From positions 42,615 to 106,614 of the forward strand of contig PAHP01000012.1 of NCBI GenBank assembly GCA_002705205.1: a stretch of 64,000 nucleotides of DNA, in the 5' to 3' direction. The notes beneath the pieces were generated by a model. That model was not told where the DNA came from, ran no database searches, and saw nothing but the letters and a program-made list of their open reading frames with translations. The position numbers and the translations under genes were made by a program. Below, one piece after another: positions 6,291-44,555 of the stretch. The DNA comes from Flavobacteriales bacterium. GTDB taxonomy: Bacteria > Bacteroidota > Bacteroidia > Flavobacteriales > BACL11. Numbering within the stretch: position 1 is the stretch's first letter; each line of letters opens with the position of its first letter.

Positions 6291-8031
6291 ATAGTCTTTC
6301 TTGAGCTATTTTTTTTTCTAGTTCTTTTGACTCCTCTCCTAAAATTTTTGCTTTTTTCCATTGTTTAACTGCCTCTTTAATTTCTCCTAATTTATATAAT
6401 ATATCACCATAATGCTCAACCACCACACCGCTTATGTCCCCTCCATTTTTTAAAGCCTTTAACATCCATTCCTTTGCTTTTTTGTAGTCTTTTAGCTCGT
6501 ATAATATCCATGCATATGTATCTTGATAGGTTCCATTGTTTTGTTCTAGTTGATTGCATTTAAATGACATCTCCTGTGCTTTTTCTAAATTCTTCTTTCT
6601 TATCGATAGATAATAAGCATAGTTATTTAAAACTAAAGTGTTCATAGGATCAATCTCTAGTGCCTTTTCATAATATTCGTCTGATAATTTGTGTTGTTTT
6701 GTTGCATGATAAACGTCAGCAAGTGAAGAGTAAAATTCTAACAGTAGGTTCTGATTATCTATTACAAAACCTATTCCCACTTCTAAAGAGGCTATAGCAT
6801 CCTTGTAATTCTTAAACCGTTTATTTGATACTCCATTAAAATAATAAAAGAGTGGGTCTGCAGGAAAATACTCAAGAGCCTCATAACTAATCCTTAGCAT
6901 GGATTCAAAATCACTTTGTTCTGCTAATATAAATAACACCTGATTCCAGACTTGACTTTTTGTTTTATCTTTCTGAAGAACTGCTAAATACTGTTCTTTT
7001 GCTTCTTGAAATTTATTGTCTGTATATAAAATATCTGCATAAACTGCCATAGCTTTTAAATTACTAGGATGTCTTTTAAGCATAATGTTGGCTAATTCAT
7101 ATGCTTGTTCTCCCATGCCTGGACTATTCGCAATTAACTGATAATAAGAAACTAAAATTCTAACTTTAGTATCAATATTTAGTGTTGGACTCTCAAATGC
7201 CAATTTTAATTCCTCATATGATTTTTTATTATCCCCATTTTCCCTATAGTAATCAGCAAGTGTAAGGTGTATCCTTCCATTATTTGGAGAAATAATTGCA
7301 ATCTTTTTAAACAATTCAAATGCCTTATCTTTTTCATCATTCAAAAGATATAGTTCTGATAGTATCTCCATTACCTCTATATCATCAGGGATAAAGGATA
7401 AAATAGATTTCAACTCCTTTATTGCTCCCTTTATGTCATTTAATTGCCTATATAGTTTATGTTTTTGCATTGATAACATCTTATCAATACCTTTATACGT
7501 CTCTAAATCATTATATACTAATATCGCCTTTCGAAAATCATTTGAATAAATATATGTTTCTGCAAGCGCGAAATATAACTCTTCATTTCCCGGCTCAAGT
7601 GCAATTAGTTTTTTATATTCTTTTGCGGCATTTACAAATTCTTGTTTGCTAAATAATATCTCAGCGTGTGTCAAGATATACCATCTTTTTTTTGGGTCTA
7701 ATTTGCATGCTGTTTTAATTTCTTCTATTGCAGTATCGTAATGTCCATTTTCAGCATTAATCTTAGCTAGCTCATAATATGGAACAGGATTTTTCTCATC
7801 AATTTTAATGCATTTTTCAAAATGTTTTATCGCTTCGTCATAATCTTCTAGGGCGCTGGCTTTTAATGCATAAAAAAAATAATTATCAAATGTCTGTTTG
7901 TCTTTTTCTTTACTTTTTTTTATTGACTCTTTTTTTGATAATTTTGATTCTGGGTAATAGGATTTCCATTGCGCAGAAGTGCAGATACTAAAAAAACTAA
8001 ATACTACTATTAATCCTATTCTAATCATCAT
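6283..8031 (-). CDS. Tetratricopeptide-repeat (TPR) protein
   Basis: 582 aa with a signal peptide and many TPR-like A/Y/L repeats ([33 protein letters not shown]). Its ATG overlaps the dut TGA (ATGA). Confidence 0.8.
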
Positions 8032-8462
8032 TTTACGCCTGTACTTCCAAATCCTCCAGATCCCCTTTCAGAATTATTGAGCTCTTCTACCTCAACCCAA
8101 TGAGCTTTTTCATGCCTTGCAATTACCATTTGAGCGATTCTTTCTCCATCTTCAATTTCAAAATCATCATCTGATAAATTTACTAAGATAACACCCACTT
8201 CTCCTCTGTAGTCCGCATCAATTGTTCCTGGGGAATTAAGAACTGTAATCCCTTTTTTAAATGCTAAACCGCTTCTTGGCCGAACTTGAGCCTCAAAACC
8301 AAGCGGAAGTTCAATAAAAATTCCTGTTTTAACAATTGTTCTCTCTAAAGGCTTTAATTTGATTGGAGCTTCAATATTTGCTCTTAGGTCCATTCCTGCA
8401 GATGCAGGTGTAGAATAATTAGGTAAAGAGTGTTTTGAAGTATTAATAATTTTCACTTTCAT
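8028..8462 (-). CDS. dut: dUTP diphosphatase
   Basis: 144 aa with [22 protein letters not shown] and the C-terminal motif [10 protein letters not shown]. It ends at TGA 8028..8030. Confidence 0.95.
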
Positions 8463-29981: not shown

Positions 29982-31994
29982 ATGAAAAAAATTATACTTT
30001 TATTAAGCAGTGCCTTAATATTTATAAATGTATTTGGACAAATAACTTTTTGTGAAAATTTTGATTCTTATACAAATGGAGATCCTATAGCAGCTACATC
30101 TGCAGATTGGGAAATTTGGCCTACCCCAACCTCTACTGATGTTAGTGTAACTAATGTTTTATCTTCAAGTGGAAGTAATTCTTTATATTTATTTTCTGGA
30201 CCAACTCAAGGAACACAAGACGTATTATTACCCTTTGGAACATCTGCTCCATATGAACTAGGTGTTTTTGAATTTTCTTCAATGTTTTATGTTAATCAAG
30301 GAACAGGTGCTTATTTTAATTTTCAAGCAGAGAATATTGCTGGAACAACATGGTCCTTAGATGTTAAGATGGATTTAGGAATAATGGTTGTAGAAAATAC
30401 AGGAAGTGGATTAAATTATTTAACTTCTACTTATCCTGAAAATCAATGGTTTGAAATAAAAGTGGTGAGTGATTTAACAAATAATATGTGGGAAGTTTTT
30501 ATTGATAACCAATCACAAGGAACATTTACTAATATAGAAAATAAAATAGCGTCATTAAACTTATATCCTATAGTAGGACATGAGTTTTATGTTGATGATG
30601 TTTGTTGGTCTTATACTGAACCAACGTTAGAAGATTTAAATGCACAAGTAATATCAGTTGCTCCTATTGCAGGTTTAACAGGACAAAATAGGTGGCCCTC
30701 TGTAGAGGTAAGAAACTTAGGACTAAACAATATTACTTCATTTGATGTTGAATTTTTATATAATGGAGTAACTCTTCAAGAATCAGTTTCTGGTGTGAAT
30801 TTAGCAACAACAGATATATATACAGTTAACTTTGATCCTTTAACAAATATGATAACATTAATAGGTGGAATAAATATAGGAACAGCAACTGTTACTAATG
30901 TAAATGGATTAGGCCCTGATGATGATCCTTCAGATGATAGTATGAATATTCAAATAGAAGCAATAGATCCGGCATTAGGAAAGTTAGTTATAGGAGAAGA
31001 AGCTACCGGAACCTGGTGTGGATGGTGTCCAAGAGGAGCAGTAGCATTAAATTGGATGGATCATGATTATGAAGGATATTGGCAGGGAATTGCAGTGCAT
31101 AATGGAGATCCAATGACAGATGCAGACTACGATAATGGACTGTTTGTTGTTCATGGAGGAAGTTATCCCTCAGGAGTAGTTGATAGAACTAATAATATAG
31201 ACCCATCTGCTTTTAAAGAAGATTTTTTACAAAGAATTACAGTTGAACCAAATGGAATAATTACAAACGGTGCAGAGTTAACAGGAAATACACTAAAAGT
31301 TAATTTAACAACTAACTTTCAAAATTCAGTAAGCGGAAGCTATAAGCTCGCATGTGTTTTGGTAGAGGATTCGGTAACAGGAACAACAAACCAATATTAT
31401 CAAGCTAATTCATATAGCGGAGGATCAGCAGGCTCATTAGTAGATGTTGATGGAAGTGATTGGGCAAACAAACCATCTCAAGTTCCAGCCTCACAAATGA
31501 TTTATCGCCATGTAGCAAGGGGAATAGCACCAAGTTTTAATGGAGGACCTCTCCCTAATACCTCATATAACAGTGGAGACTCTGAAACACTATGTTTTGA
31601 GTTCACATTAGATCCGTCTTGGGATCAATCAAAAATACATATTGTGGGAATGTTATTAGATAACAGCGGGCTTATTGATAATGCCTCCTCTACATCTATA
31701 GCCGACGCTATAAATAACGGGTATAATTCATGTGCAACCACATCAATAGGTGTAGATTTAAATGGACCGGACAGAATTAATTTTTTCCCAAATCCAGCAA
31801 CGGATAATATATACATATCAAATGTATTAAAAACAACAAACATTAAGATTTATGATATTCAAGGAAGATTAGTTTTAGAAAAAGAAACACACAATAAAGA
31901 ATATTTAAATATTTCATCTTTAGCAAAAGGAGTTTATCAAGTTACATTTGAAGGAGAGAACTATAAAGAAAAAAGAAAATTAATAAAAGAATAA
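29982..31994 (+). CDS. T9SS-secreted multidomain protein with a thioredoxin-type WCGWCP motif (Omp28-related/thioredoxin-like) and a type-A C-terminal sorting domain
   Basis: 670 aa with a signal peptide. EEATGTWCGWCPRGAV is encoded around 31014..31031. The C-terminus INFFPNPATDNIYIS...IYDIQGRLV...LAKGVYQVTF is a T9SS CTD. Confidence 0.8.
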   Translation: MKKIILLLSSALIFINVFGQITFCENFDSYTNGDPIAATSADWEIWPTPTSTDVSVTNVLSSSGSNSLYLFSGPTQGTQDVLLPFGTSAPYELGVFEFSSMFYVNQGTGAYFNFQAENIAGTTWSLDVKMDLGIMVVENTGSGLNYLTSTYPENQWFEIKVVSDLTNNMWEVFIDNQSQGTFTNIENKIASLNLYPIVGHEFYVDDVCWSYTEPTLEDLNAQVISVAPIAGLTGQNRWPSVEVRNLGLNNITSFDVEFLYNGVTLQESVSGVNLATTDIYTVNFDPLTNMITLIGGINIGTATVTNVNGLGPDDDPSDDSMNIQIEAIDPALGKLVIGEEATGTWCGWCPRGAVALNWMDHDYEGYWQGIAVHNGDPMTDADYDNGLFVVHGGSYPSGVVDRTNNIDPSAFKEDFLQRITVEPNGIITNGAELTGNTLKVNLTTNFQNSVSGSYKLACVLVEDSVTGTTNQYYQANSYSGGSAGSLVDVDGSDWANKPSQVPASQMIYRHVARGIAPSFNGGPLPNTSYNSGDSETLCFEFTLDPSWDQSKIHIVGMLLDNSGLIDNASSTSIADAINNGYNSCATTSIGVDLNGPDRINFFPNPATDNIYISNVLKTTNIKIYDIQGRLVLEKETHNKEYLNISSLAKGVYQVTFEGENYKEKRKLIKE

Positions 31995-42872: not shown

Positions 42873-43208
42873 ATGAAAAAACTATTATTTGTATTAGCGT
42901 TTACTTTTATTGGGGGGCAATCATTTTCACAAATTTATCTTGTCACATTATCTGATAATGGCATAGGGAGCTGCTCTAATCAAGAAATACTTCTTACTAA
43001 AATTCCCCCTGCAGGTCCGGCAACATACATCTGTATCCCAGAGAGTATTGAGTTTGGGCTTGTTCCATTAAACCAAGAGCTTAATAATATTATAAGTTTG
43101 GGGTATAAATTAATTGCAACTAACAATGGAACAACTGATGCTGCTAGTGGCTTAATTAATGAAGAAACTATAAACAAAGGAACAACATTTTATTTTGCCA
43201 TTCCTTGA
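42873..43208 (+). CDS. Signal-peptide domain of a small T9SS cargo protein, ended by an in-frame TGA
   Basis: 111 aa with signal peptide MKKLLFVLAFTFIGGQSFSQ. It ends FYFAIP-TGA, and the same frame continues into a T9SS CTD. Confidence 0.6.
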   Translation: MKKLLFVLAFTFIGGQSFSQIYLVTLSDNGIGSCSNQEILLTKIPPAGPATYICIPESIEFGLVPLNQELNNIISLGYKLIATNNGTTDAASGLINEETINKGTTFYFAIP

Positions 43209-43496
43209 AGTGCAAGTGGTCTAGAAGAAGTTCCTACGACCCTAAAGAATTTTATCATAAGCCCTAATCCTGCAAATACCTTTGTAGATGTTTCATTAGA
43301 TTGTTCCTTAAAAGGAAAAAGTGAAATTGTCTTTATAAGTGAAGCGGGGTATATCTCTCACAAAGAAAGTATAGGCAATATTTCTAAAAATGAAAAATAC
43401 AATATAGATATTTCTAAAATTCCTACAGGAAAATACCTTGTAACAATCGTTAATGGTAAAACCTACACCACTCCACAAAAATTAATTGTTTTATAA
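43209..43496 (+). pseudogene. T9SS type-A C-terminal sorting domain coding segment with no start codon of its own (in frame with 42873..43208)
   Basis: The hand translation gives 95 sense codons: ...FIISPNPANTFVDVSL...[35 protein letters not shown]. It is in the same frame as the upstream ORF and contains no internal stop. Confidence 0.7.
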
Positions 43497-44504
43497 AGAG
43501 GAGAATTGTTTTAGAAAACGAACATCATTTTCAAAAAACAGGCGCAAGTCGTTTATTCCATATTTTAACATAGCAATTCTTTCAATCCCCATTCCAAAAG
43601 CATATCCGCTATATTTATTGGAATCAATACCACAATTTTCTAAAACATTTGGATCAACCATGCCGCAGCCTAAAATCTCTAGATAACCGGTATATTTACA
43701 AACATTACAACCTTTACTACTACAAATATTACAACTTACATCAACCTCAGCACTTGGCTCTGTAAATGGAAAATATGAGGGCCTTAGCCTGATTTTTGTT
43801 TTTTCTCCAAACATTTCTTTTGCGAAATATAAGAGCGCTTGTTTCAGATCAGCAAAACTTACATTTTCATCAATATACAACCCTTCTACTTGGTGGAAAA
43901 TACAATGAGCTCTTGCTGAAATCGCCTCATTTCTATAAACTCTTCCAGGAGAAAGAGTCCGTATAGGGGGTTTATTATTATTCATATGCCTTACTTGAAC
44001 AGAGGAGGTGTGTGTTCGTAATAACAGATCTGGATCAGTTTGTATAAAAAAAGTGTCTTGCATATCTCTTGCCGGATGCTCTTCTGGTAAATTTAATGCA
44101 GAAAAATTATGCCAATCATCTTCAATTTCTGGCCCTTCGCTGATAGAAAAACCAATACGATTAAAAATATCTATAATCTGATCTTTTATTAGTGAAATAG
44201 GGTGCCTACTACCTAAATTATTTAAAGCAATAGGTCGAGTAAAATCAATCTGCTTTCTTTTTTCTTCTGCTTCAAAGCTGCCCTTAAACTCTTCTACTTT
44301 TTCTTGAGCATTTTGTTTAAGCATGTTTATTGCTTGACCAAACTCTTTTTTACTTTCATTAGGGATGTTTTTAAATGCAATAAAAAGCTCATTCATTTTA
44401 CCCTTTTTACCCAAAAACTTTAAACGAAAAACTTCTACTTCTTCTTCAGAATTAGGGCTAAACTCCTTAACCTCCTGTAGTAAATCTTTAACCGTTTCTA
44501 ACAT
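43491..44504 (-). CDS. pheS: Phenylalanine--tRNA ligase subunit alpha
   Basis: Class II motifs ([36 protein letters not shown]). I prefer the start at ATG 44504 (MLETVKDLL...). The track's GTG at 44540 adds 12 residues with no homology. Confidence 0.95.
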
Positions 44505-44518
44505 TGTAATAAATTGTA

Positions 44519-44526
44519 TATCTTTG
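44519..44526 (+). promoter_or_regulatory. -7 promoter box TATCTTTG upstream of the 44556 lipoprotein gene
   Basis: Exact TAnnTTTG match 29 nt upstream of ATG 44556. Confidence 0.35.
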
Positions 44527-44555
44527 CTTGTATAAAACACAAAGAAACAATAATT

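Follow-up and report, generated by a model that had tools for sequence, protein, structure and literature searches.

A conserved in-frame UGA between a signal-peptide-bearing cargo domain and a type IX secretion sorting domain in a marine Flavobacteriales gene family: a candidate for programmed read-through

We analyzed a window of 64,000 nucleotides, i.e., the whole stretch of DNA considered here, from contig PAHP01000012.1, whose source is annotated as a marine Flavobacteriales metagenome-assembled genome (MAG). The subject of this work is a small gene in which one in-frame TGA stands between a signal peptide with its cargo domain and a C-terminal sorting domain of the type IX secretion system (T9SS). 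Translation of the window gave an open reading frame (ORF) of 111 amino acids (aa), with MKKLLFVLAFTFIGGQSFSQ as the first residues, running from the ATG at 42873 to the TGA at 43206-43208, and reading on in the same frame added 95 sense codons up to the TAA at 43494-43496, exactly as an earlier note on this DNA had claimed. The same note had held that the tail is sensible only as part of the upstream ORF, and this stands: no ORF with an in-frame ATG, GTG, or TTG start was present within the 95 codons, and the tail has no signal peptide of its own. The mature N-terminus of the product cleaved by signal peptidase is predicted to be Gln20; signal-peptide cleavage ahead of Gln is typical in Bacteroidota. 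The coordinates of all these features are collected in Table 1.

The tail is a T9SS C-terminal domain (CTD). The note had called it a type A sorting domain, and when this was checked with profile hidden Markov models, the 95-aa tail matched Pfam Por_Secre_tail PF18962 from end to end (positions 1-75 of 75) with 35.9 bits and an E value of 9e-9, the gathering score being 27, and the domain ended one residue before the TAA. With NCBIfam TIGR04183, however, the claim fell just short, with a score of 22.0 under a cut-off of 23. The protein used for comparison in the note, an Omp28-domain protein encoded at 29982..31994, does carry a CTD (55.3 bits) and is thus another CTD protein in the window. 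In the AlphaFold model of the read-through protein, residues 21-111 formed a confident small alpha/beta domain, residues 113-125 a disordered linker, and the rest a beta-sandwich; thus, the TGA is placed exactly at the boundary between cargo and linker. Foldseek analysis of the tail beta-sandwich retrieved 8qb1_A, the CTD of mirolase (E 7.9e-4, TMt 0.60), and 8glk_D, the CTD of NucA in a T9SS complex (TMt 0.71). In keeping with the known biology of T9SS, the CTD would probably be cut off within the linker, at residues 113-128. The cargo domain was modeled with a predicted local distance difference test (pLDDT) score of 85.6 and a predicted template modeling (pTM) score of 0.74, with no significant fold match in the PDB (best E 0.22) and no match of the window domain in Pfam, NCBIfam, or PHROG; a homologue, P0264, gave only a weak PHROG match (E 0.0034). 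Signal peptide and CTD share one polypeptide only if the UGA is read through.

The comparative analysis drew on DNA fetched for 80 related loci from metagenomes, 2 from GTDB MAGs, and 13 that represent distant members. The homologous codon was TGA in 92 fetched loci of marine Flavobacteriales, including 54/54 unique full-length genes of the window subfamily. Elsewhere, these 54 genes contain 37 in-frame TGG codons, and their terminal stops are TAA (44 genes) or TAG (10 genes), never TGA. The exact 111-aa product was called on 8 contigs from several assemblies; across 6 kb, their identity to the window was 99.93-99.98%, and all of them have the TGA. The stop was also found in independent assemblies and samples, namely ENA and Logan ERR598983, JGI 3300020431, NCBI MDSW01061015, three BPAM22-1 samples, and ERZ27294581/602, and a sister sublineage from other samples, with 10 substitutions over the gene relative to the window, kept it as well.

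The earlier note had offered a recent nonsense mutation or a sequence error as one explanation of the stop, and the orthologue check that it proposed ran the opposite way, with TGA kept in 92 loci that include the syntenic orthologue L102. This explanation, taken together with a host code in which TGA means Trp, draws on the facts that TGA is one step from TGG and that databases show W at the site; nevertheless, the DNA behind the W is TGA, and the independent assemblies, the 92 loci, and the standard code of the window all speak against it, so we regard it as refuted and give it next to no credence. Accordingly, a sequencing or assembly error was rejected because independently assembled samples agree on the TGA, a recent nonsense mutation because of the 92 loci, and a pseudogene made by nonsense mutation because the whole family shares the TGA and selection acts on the tail. 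Degenerate copies of the family do exist (L073, L085, L086, and L089/L090), and these show extra stops or frameshifts, unlike the window gene.

The host uses the standard genetic code. When all six frames of the 64-kb window were inspected, only three TGAs had at least 60 sense codons on each side, and two of them were antisense to real genes, leaving the TGA at 43206-43208 as the sole coding-sense in-frame TGA of the window; Trp elsewhere in the window is encoded by TGG. The 57 ORFs of the window end in TAA (40), TAG (12), or TGA (5), and ordinary TGA stops account for 4 of 56. Complete genes closed by TGA include those for dUTPase and an ABC ATPase. Genetic code 4 (or 25) in the host was rejected on these grounds, i.e., no other coding in-frame TGA, complete genes closed by TGA, and TGG for Trp. 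The ordinary TGA stops of the window lie at 8028-8031, 8459-8462, 44926, and 53473; T is the next base in three of the four, and the fourth sits in an ATGA stop/start overlap.

The appearance of W in protein databases deserves separate treatment. The protein search gave 307 homologues; among the 120 listed, more than 100 were full-length, with about 205-220 aa, and Trp occupied the stop position in 32 of the 32 full-length database homologues that were aligned. For every such Trp protein whose DNA was fetched, translating that DNA did not give the listed protein, and the codon at the site is TGA. The database Trp comes from gene callers choosing genetic code 4 on short contigs, and the full-length database homologues were rejected as evidence for TGG because the underlying DNA is TGA. 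Hundreds of such "full-length" members with Trp are found in public metagenome sets (e.g., L007, which is P0123; L092-L095; L098-L101; and P0001-P0120), and where contigs are long, the gene appears as a hypothetical protein cut short at about 110-135 aa. Because its members are annotated as truncated or translated with a false Trp, this family, like any similar ones, is invisible to standard pipelines and would be mistaken for pseudogenes or taken to support code 4.

The context of the stop is conserved along with the stop itself. The preceding codon was Pro in every TGA-bearing locus (CCT in 80, CCA in 8, CCC in 5, and CCG in 1), and the +4 base, the first past the TGA, was A in 93 of 95 loci. 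The arrangement CCN-TGA-ACN was also found in distant members with quite different CTDs, namely L092, L093, L095, L098/99, L100, and L101, whose neighbor genes use the standard code. Moreover, when 1.84 billion cluster representatives were searched with a profile, about 70 clusters (50% identity) contained proteins of 108-137 aa whose match to the profile went no further than position 111 and which end at this Pro.

A single syntenic locus for the family was rejected because its members occupy at least three genomic contexts: between M42 and pheS, as in the window; between RpiB or ferredoxin and an M28 peptidase; and others. It follows from these contexts that the TGA survived duplication and speciation, and that there are probably several paralogues per genome. 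The contexts in L020, L046, L067, and other loci include one between HPPD-AhpC and GtrA, and in L046 the M28 context has a PETase-like CTD protein nearby. In the window, the gene starts 6 nt past the stop of the M42 peptidase gene, and because of this short distance it is probably co-transcribed with the genes for pyruvate kinase and M42.

The codons past the TGA behave as protein-coding sequence. Over the 54 genes, tail entropy at codon positions 1, 2, and 3 was 0.28, 0.18, and 0.56, respectively, and the ratio of nonsynonymous to synonymous polymorphism (pN/pS) was 0.23 for the whole tail and 0.16 for its distal half. The sole indel of the tail in the family is an in-frame one of 9 nt, which gives tails of 95 or 98 codons. 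Judged from these patterns of substitution, the tail is under purifying selection at the protein level and is probably translated. In agreement, the syntenic orthologue L102, which keeps Pro-TGA-A, has a tail 83% identical to that of the window, similar to the 83% of PheS, with 92% for M42, 77% for pyruvate kinase, and 42% for the cargo domain. In the cargo domain, pN/pS was 0.69, synonymous sites were saturated, and lengths fell into 18 classes. This pattern suggests that the cargo is under diversifying selection or is exchanged like a cassette, by recombination between conserved ends. The signal peptide and the tail, which flank this hypervariable cargo, are conserved even at synonymous sites.

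A sense codon at the site was found in two lineages only. In L079 (2495-3139), CGA (Arg) replaces TGA, and the start codon ATG is mutated to ATA, so this copy may be a dying one. In L096/L097, which come from two samples, the site reads Thr-TGG-Leu; Pro and the +4 A are both lost, and a perfect-stem scan found no hairpin 6-9 nt past the TGG. Neither TGG nor the CGA of L079 reveals the residue inserted elsewhere, because each is one step from TGA. In L096, and also in L097, the long gene (L096:1121-1765) has a tandem paralogue 67 nt upstream (L096:703-1053), which encodes 116 aa and is 72% identical over 115 aa. This short paralogue comprises signal peptide and cargo and ends in YLSKP-TAG, followed only by an AT-rich spacer with no tail. 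From its sequence, this lineage encodes the CTD-less and CTD-bearing forms in two separate genes. Such a lineage is what would be expected if both forms are needed and if a single gene elsewhere makes both by partial read-through.

Just downstream of the stop, the RNA of the window gene has a predicted local fold, with the 5' arm GGUCUAG (43218-43224), the loop AAGAAGUUC (43225-43233), and the 3' arm CUA(C)GACC (43234-43241), in which C43237 is bulged. For hairpins of this type, 96% of cells were paired over 53 sequences, and in 5 cells both sides had changed (C-G to U-A and G-C to A-U). The in-frame 9-nt insertion of some members falls in the hairpin loop. Over the first approximately 40 codons past the TGA, synonymous polymorphism (pS) was 0.23, much below that of the distal tail (0.42) and of the cargo (0.63). 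Some codons that this genome seldom uses (CTA, 12%; ACG, 8%; ACC, 12%; and AAG, 22% of their synonymous sets) are near-fixed there, and the rare CTA, ACG, and ACC build the hairpin arms. Hairpins of different sequence occur 6-9 nt past the TGA in at least five subfamilies (Table 1), and one member with the CCAGY type has GCAGU...GCUGC, where C-G is swapped to G-C through two nonsynonymous changes. As a reference, a perfect 5-bp stem with at least three G-C pairs at that spacing was present at 0.43% of 12,908 control codon positions. Collectively, we grade the evidence for the hairpin as moderate. Two more hairpins are predicted at 43270-43330, in the CTD-coding part (CUGCAAA/UUUGUAG and a nested UUCCU/AGGAA; z = -1.0), within the stretch of low synonymous divergence.

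Table 1. Coordinates of the gene with the in-frame TGA, its parts and its convergent neighbor in the window, followed by the hairpins predicted past the TGA in other subfamilies.
Feature	Position	Strand	Remarks
Signal peptide	42873..42929	+	aa 1-19, MKKLLFVLAFTFIGGQSFS; near-invariant in the family; helix 3-14 in the AlphaFold model
Cargo domain	42930..43205	+	aa 20-111; beta-beta-beta-alpha-beta-beta fold with invariant Cys C34 and C54; hypervariable between lineages
Pro codon CCT	43203..43205	+	immediately 5' of the TGA; would fill the P site when the UGA is reached
In-frame TGA, proposed read-through site	43206..43208	+	residue 112, between the last cargo strand and the disordered linker
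+4 base A	43209..43209	+	first base past the TGA
Linker	43209..43256	+	aa 113-128, SASGLEEVPTTLKNFI; predicted disordered, pLDDT <50 for 113-125
Candidate stimulatory hairpin	43218..43241	+	begins 9 nt past the TGA
T9SS type A C-terminal sorting domain	43257..43490	+	aa 129-206
Final TAA of the long form	43494..43496	+	within the 6-nt overlap 43491-43496 with the convergent pheS 3' end
pheS	43491..44540	-	convergent neighbor
Hairpin CCAGY-N5-RCUGG			another subfamily; spacer 7
Hairpin GCUGG-N7-CCAGC			another subfamily; spacer 6
Hairpin GGUUA-N6-UAACC			another subfamily; spacer 8
Hairpin AGUG(G)CUU-N6-AAGCACU			another subfamily; spacer 6

We propose, with moderate confidence, that the UGA is subject to programmed partial read-through, so that a short form would stay in the periplasm and a long form would be handed to the T9SS. 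Most ribosomes would probably stop at the UGA (43206-8) and release the 111-aa precursor, whose signal peptide would take a domain of about 92 aa, with no T9SS tag, to the periplasm. A fraction of the ribosomes would decode the UGA and continue through the disordered linker into the type A T9SS CTD. In this long form, the same cargo would be exported by the T9SS to the cell surface or the medium, and the CTD would then be removed. Thus, the leaky stop with two forms, the other explanation of the earlier note, is favored by the conserved TGA and its context, the selection on the tail, and the two-gene lineage, while the read-through itself, its efficiency, and the places assigned to the two forms are inferred. 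Frameshifting and reinitiation were both rejected: conservation lies in frame 0 immediately past the stop, and the tail offers no start codon.

In bacteria, UGA is usually read by the near-cognate tRNA-Trp, and the most likely decoder here would be tRNA-Trp(CCA), with Trp inserted. Decoding by tRNA-Trp would fit both the TGG lineage and a homologue, described below, that keeps TGA at the site within a TGA-to-Trp recoded element (L094). UGA is decoded as a stop only by release factor 2 (RF2), the minor one of the two release factors in Flavobacteriales, and this would favor read-through. RF2 is far less abundant than RF1 in Flavobacterium johnsoniae, where only 7% of the stops are UGA (PMC10798248, PMC12421855); the stop usage of the window resembles these figures. 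The invariant Pro in the P site may slow peptide release, in line with PMC7246954 (citing Hayes 2002 and Pierson 2016), according to which release after a C-terminal Pro is inefficient with both release factors. The A at +4 may act in the same direction, as this base is never U, which is the strong-termination base in bacteria (PMC5289835). Finally, the small hairpin 6-9 nt downstream would lie near the mRNA entry while the UGA is in the A site, and viral read-through signals have a 3' structure near the mRNA entry site (PMC13517186).

Several observations weigh against this proposal. The case for Trp insertion comes from the usual decoding of UGA in bacteria and from one TGG lineage. As for the RNA level, folding energies beat the background only modestly, with empirical p values from 0.004 to 0.23 (window hairpin, z -0.7, p 0.06), the counts of covariation or compensatory changes are small, and RNAalifold on the 53 sequences gave no consensus structure. 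The control region bearing TGG also folds, at -6.6 kcal/mol, though further downstream, and the low synonymous divergence over the whole tail could come in part from recombination or gene conversion and not from RNA structure. As for the protein level, the comparison of the window with the sister sublineage L007-L010 gave five nonsynonymous and one synonymous differences in the tail and none and three, respectively, in the cargo. The tail differences between the window and L001-L003/L007-L010 are N126S, V140F, C144Y, I152V, and T185A, and the column of residue 144 is at least 90% conserved; moreover, a nonsynonymous single-nucleotide polymorphism in the tail, T123A, separates near-identical contigs. 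These differences hint at relaxed constraint on the tail in the window lineage, which is not significant against the family pN/pS (p ~0.07), and we do not claim relaxed selection there.

The same differences, including that at residue 144 and the T123A polymorphism, would be accounted for by a lineage-specific loss, in which the tail is unused and starting to decay in the window strain group and the gene is effectively the 111-aa ORF. We consider such a loss very unlikely: besides the p value of ~0.07, the frame, the TGA context, the hairpin, and a CTD detectable with Pfam are all intact in the window.

The serious rival to partial read-through is selenocysteine (Sec), because bacterial Sec codons are recognizable by just this combination of a UGA and a hairpin that follows it. 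In this case, the UGA would be read as Sec through SelB and tRNA-Sec, the hairpin would be a bacterial Sec insertion sequence (SECIS), and only the full-length T9SS-secreted product would be intended. The in-frame UGA is almost never replaced, as Sec insertion would have it, and it is followed directly by the hairpin; in addition, several hairpins have G at loop position 2 (CGAGA, AGUGA, AGCGA, and AGAAGA), and the residues past the site often read U-x-x-S. However, no homologue with Cys (TGT/TGC) appeared among about 100 loci or about 150 representatives listed, where the only replacements were Trp and Arg, while known marine selenoprotein families are dominated by Cys, with 58,225 Cys vs. 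3506 Sec members (PMC2398784). The site is non-catalytic, lying at a domain boundary beside a disordered linker and not in a pocket, and the invariant -1 Pro and +4 A are not needed for Sec insertion. The published bacterial SECIS model needs 16-37 nt, whereas the apical loops here are 11-16 nt from the UGA, and both stem and loop sequences differ between subfamilies; the loop G is at position 1-2 in only some subfamilies. Moreover, the homologue in the TGA-to-Trp recoded element also has TGA at the site. There is no tRNA-Sec in the 64-kb window, which is weak evidence, and an Rfam scan of 43000-43600 gave no match except a spurious snoRNA. Taken together, we regard Sec insertion as unlikely.

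The recoded element just mentioned is a 27.7-kb Logan contig, SRR29457800_11689, on which the family homologue (L094) keeps the TGA at the site. Within 140-2109, the homologue adjoins an endolysin-like Peptidase_M15_3 gene and a small holin-like ORF, with 1-3 in-frame TGAs at Trp-like positions, and a DNA methyltransferase gene on the opposite strand uses TGG only. Its gene content and codons make L094 a probable phage, or an element of that kind, in which TGA is recoded to Trp. Searches of IMG/VR with two profiles and of cultured phages gave no member of the family.

L094 brings up conditional suppression, in which the UGA would be a hard stop in normal growth and would be read only with a UGA-decoding tRNA or lowered RF2, the CTD being added as a switch; this could happen when a phage with TGA recoded to Trp brings in a suppressor tRNA, or when stress reduces RF2. 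All the evidence for translation of the tail fits this equally well, and the several in-frame TGAs in the genes beside the L094 homologue indicate that TGA-recoded elements exist in the same gene pool. Nonetheless, it is pure inference with no suppressor tRNA seen, the searches of IMG/VR and cultured phages gave no family member, the -1 Pro, the +4 A, and the hairpin would be superfluous if a cognate suppressor reads the UGA, and the two-gene lineage suggests that both forms are constitutive. We therefore hold conditional suppression to be highly improbable.

Returning to partial read-through, the UGA could also serve as a regulated switch instead of a leak of fixed ratio. The share of the protein given the T9SS tag would then follow RF2 activity, the level of charged tRNA-Trp, or the entry of a UGA-decoding tRNA with a TGA-recoded phage; we consider this extension unlikely. 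If true, a hypervariable small protein would be moved from periplasm to surface according to physiological state or infection.

Programmed read-through of stops other than for Sec is textbook knowledge for RNA phages, viruses, and eukaryotes, and to our knowledge it is essentially undocumented for bacterial chromosomal genes. Full-text literature searches gave no report of read-through in T9SS cargo or in Flavobacteria, and none of a non-Sec in-frame UGA that is conserved in chromosomal genes of bacteria. If our proposal is true, a family of bacterial chromosomal genes would, as far as we found, show conserved non-Sec stop read-through for the first time, and dual localization by read-through would likewise be new to bacteria. 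Bacteria would then be able to send one protein to two compartments via an optional T9SS sorting domain, with an outcome tied to the low RF2 level of Flavobacteriales.

The closest case in a bacterial setting is the Q-beta coat protein, whose UGA is leaky and is read at low frequency by tRNA-Trp, giving the minor extended A1 protein that is needed beside the major short one; in E. coli, the classic leaky stop is a UGA with A as the next base. The gene family described here resembles coat/A1 in the leaky UGA, the reading by normal tRNA-Trp, and the C-terminally extended minor protein, all as proposed. It differs in that Q-beta is an RNA phage with a structural extension, whereas this is a chromosomal Flavobacteriales family with a secretion-targeting extension, a -1 Pro, and a hairpin 6-9 nt downstream. 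With bacterial Sec insertion, it shares a conserved in-frame UGA and a hairpin immediately 3' within the coding sequence, but it departs from that system in the lack of Cys homologues, the non-catalytic site, the shorter spacing, the variable hairpin, and the termination-weakening context. The prfB +1 frameshift at CUU-UGA, an RF2 sensor that is present and has been investigated in Flavobacteriales (PMC10798248), is similar in that RF2 competition sets the outcome at an internal UGA. Unlike prfB, this gene has no slippery sequence, and its conserved downstream frame is frame 0, both of which argue for read-through and not frameshifting.

The signals of alphaviruses and coltiviruses and the murine leukemia virus pseudoknot (PMC13517186; stem-loop about 8 nt past the stop) have the same order of stop, short spacer, and RNA structure, with an extension under coding selection, although they act on eukaryotic ribosomes and are usually larger structures than the 5-7-bp stems found here. 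In fungi and animals, UGA read-through adds a cryptic peroxisomal targeting signal, PTS1, to LDHB, MDH1, and glycolytic enzymes (PMC4207609, PMC4359377, PMC5133446). The likeness to these cases lies in a favorable short UGA context, the addition of a targeting signal, two compartments for one protein, and separate genes for the two forms in some lineages, here L096/L097. The PTS1 cases are, however, eukaryotic, depend on eRF1, and add a peroxisomal tripeptide, whereas the proposed extension here is a folded CTD of 80 aa that would serve the bacterial T9SS and divide the protein between the periplasm and the surface or medium.

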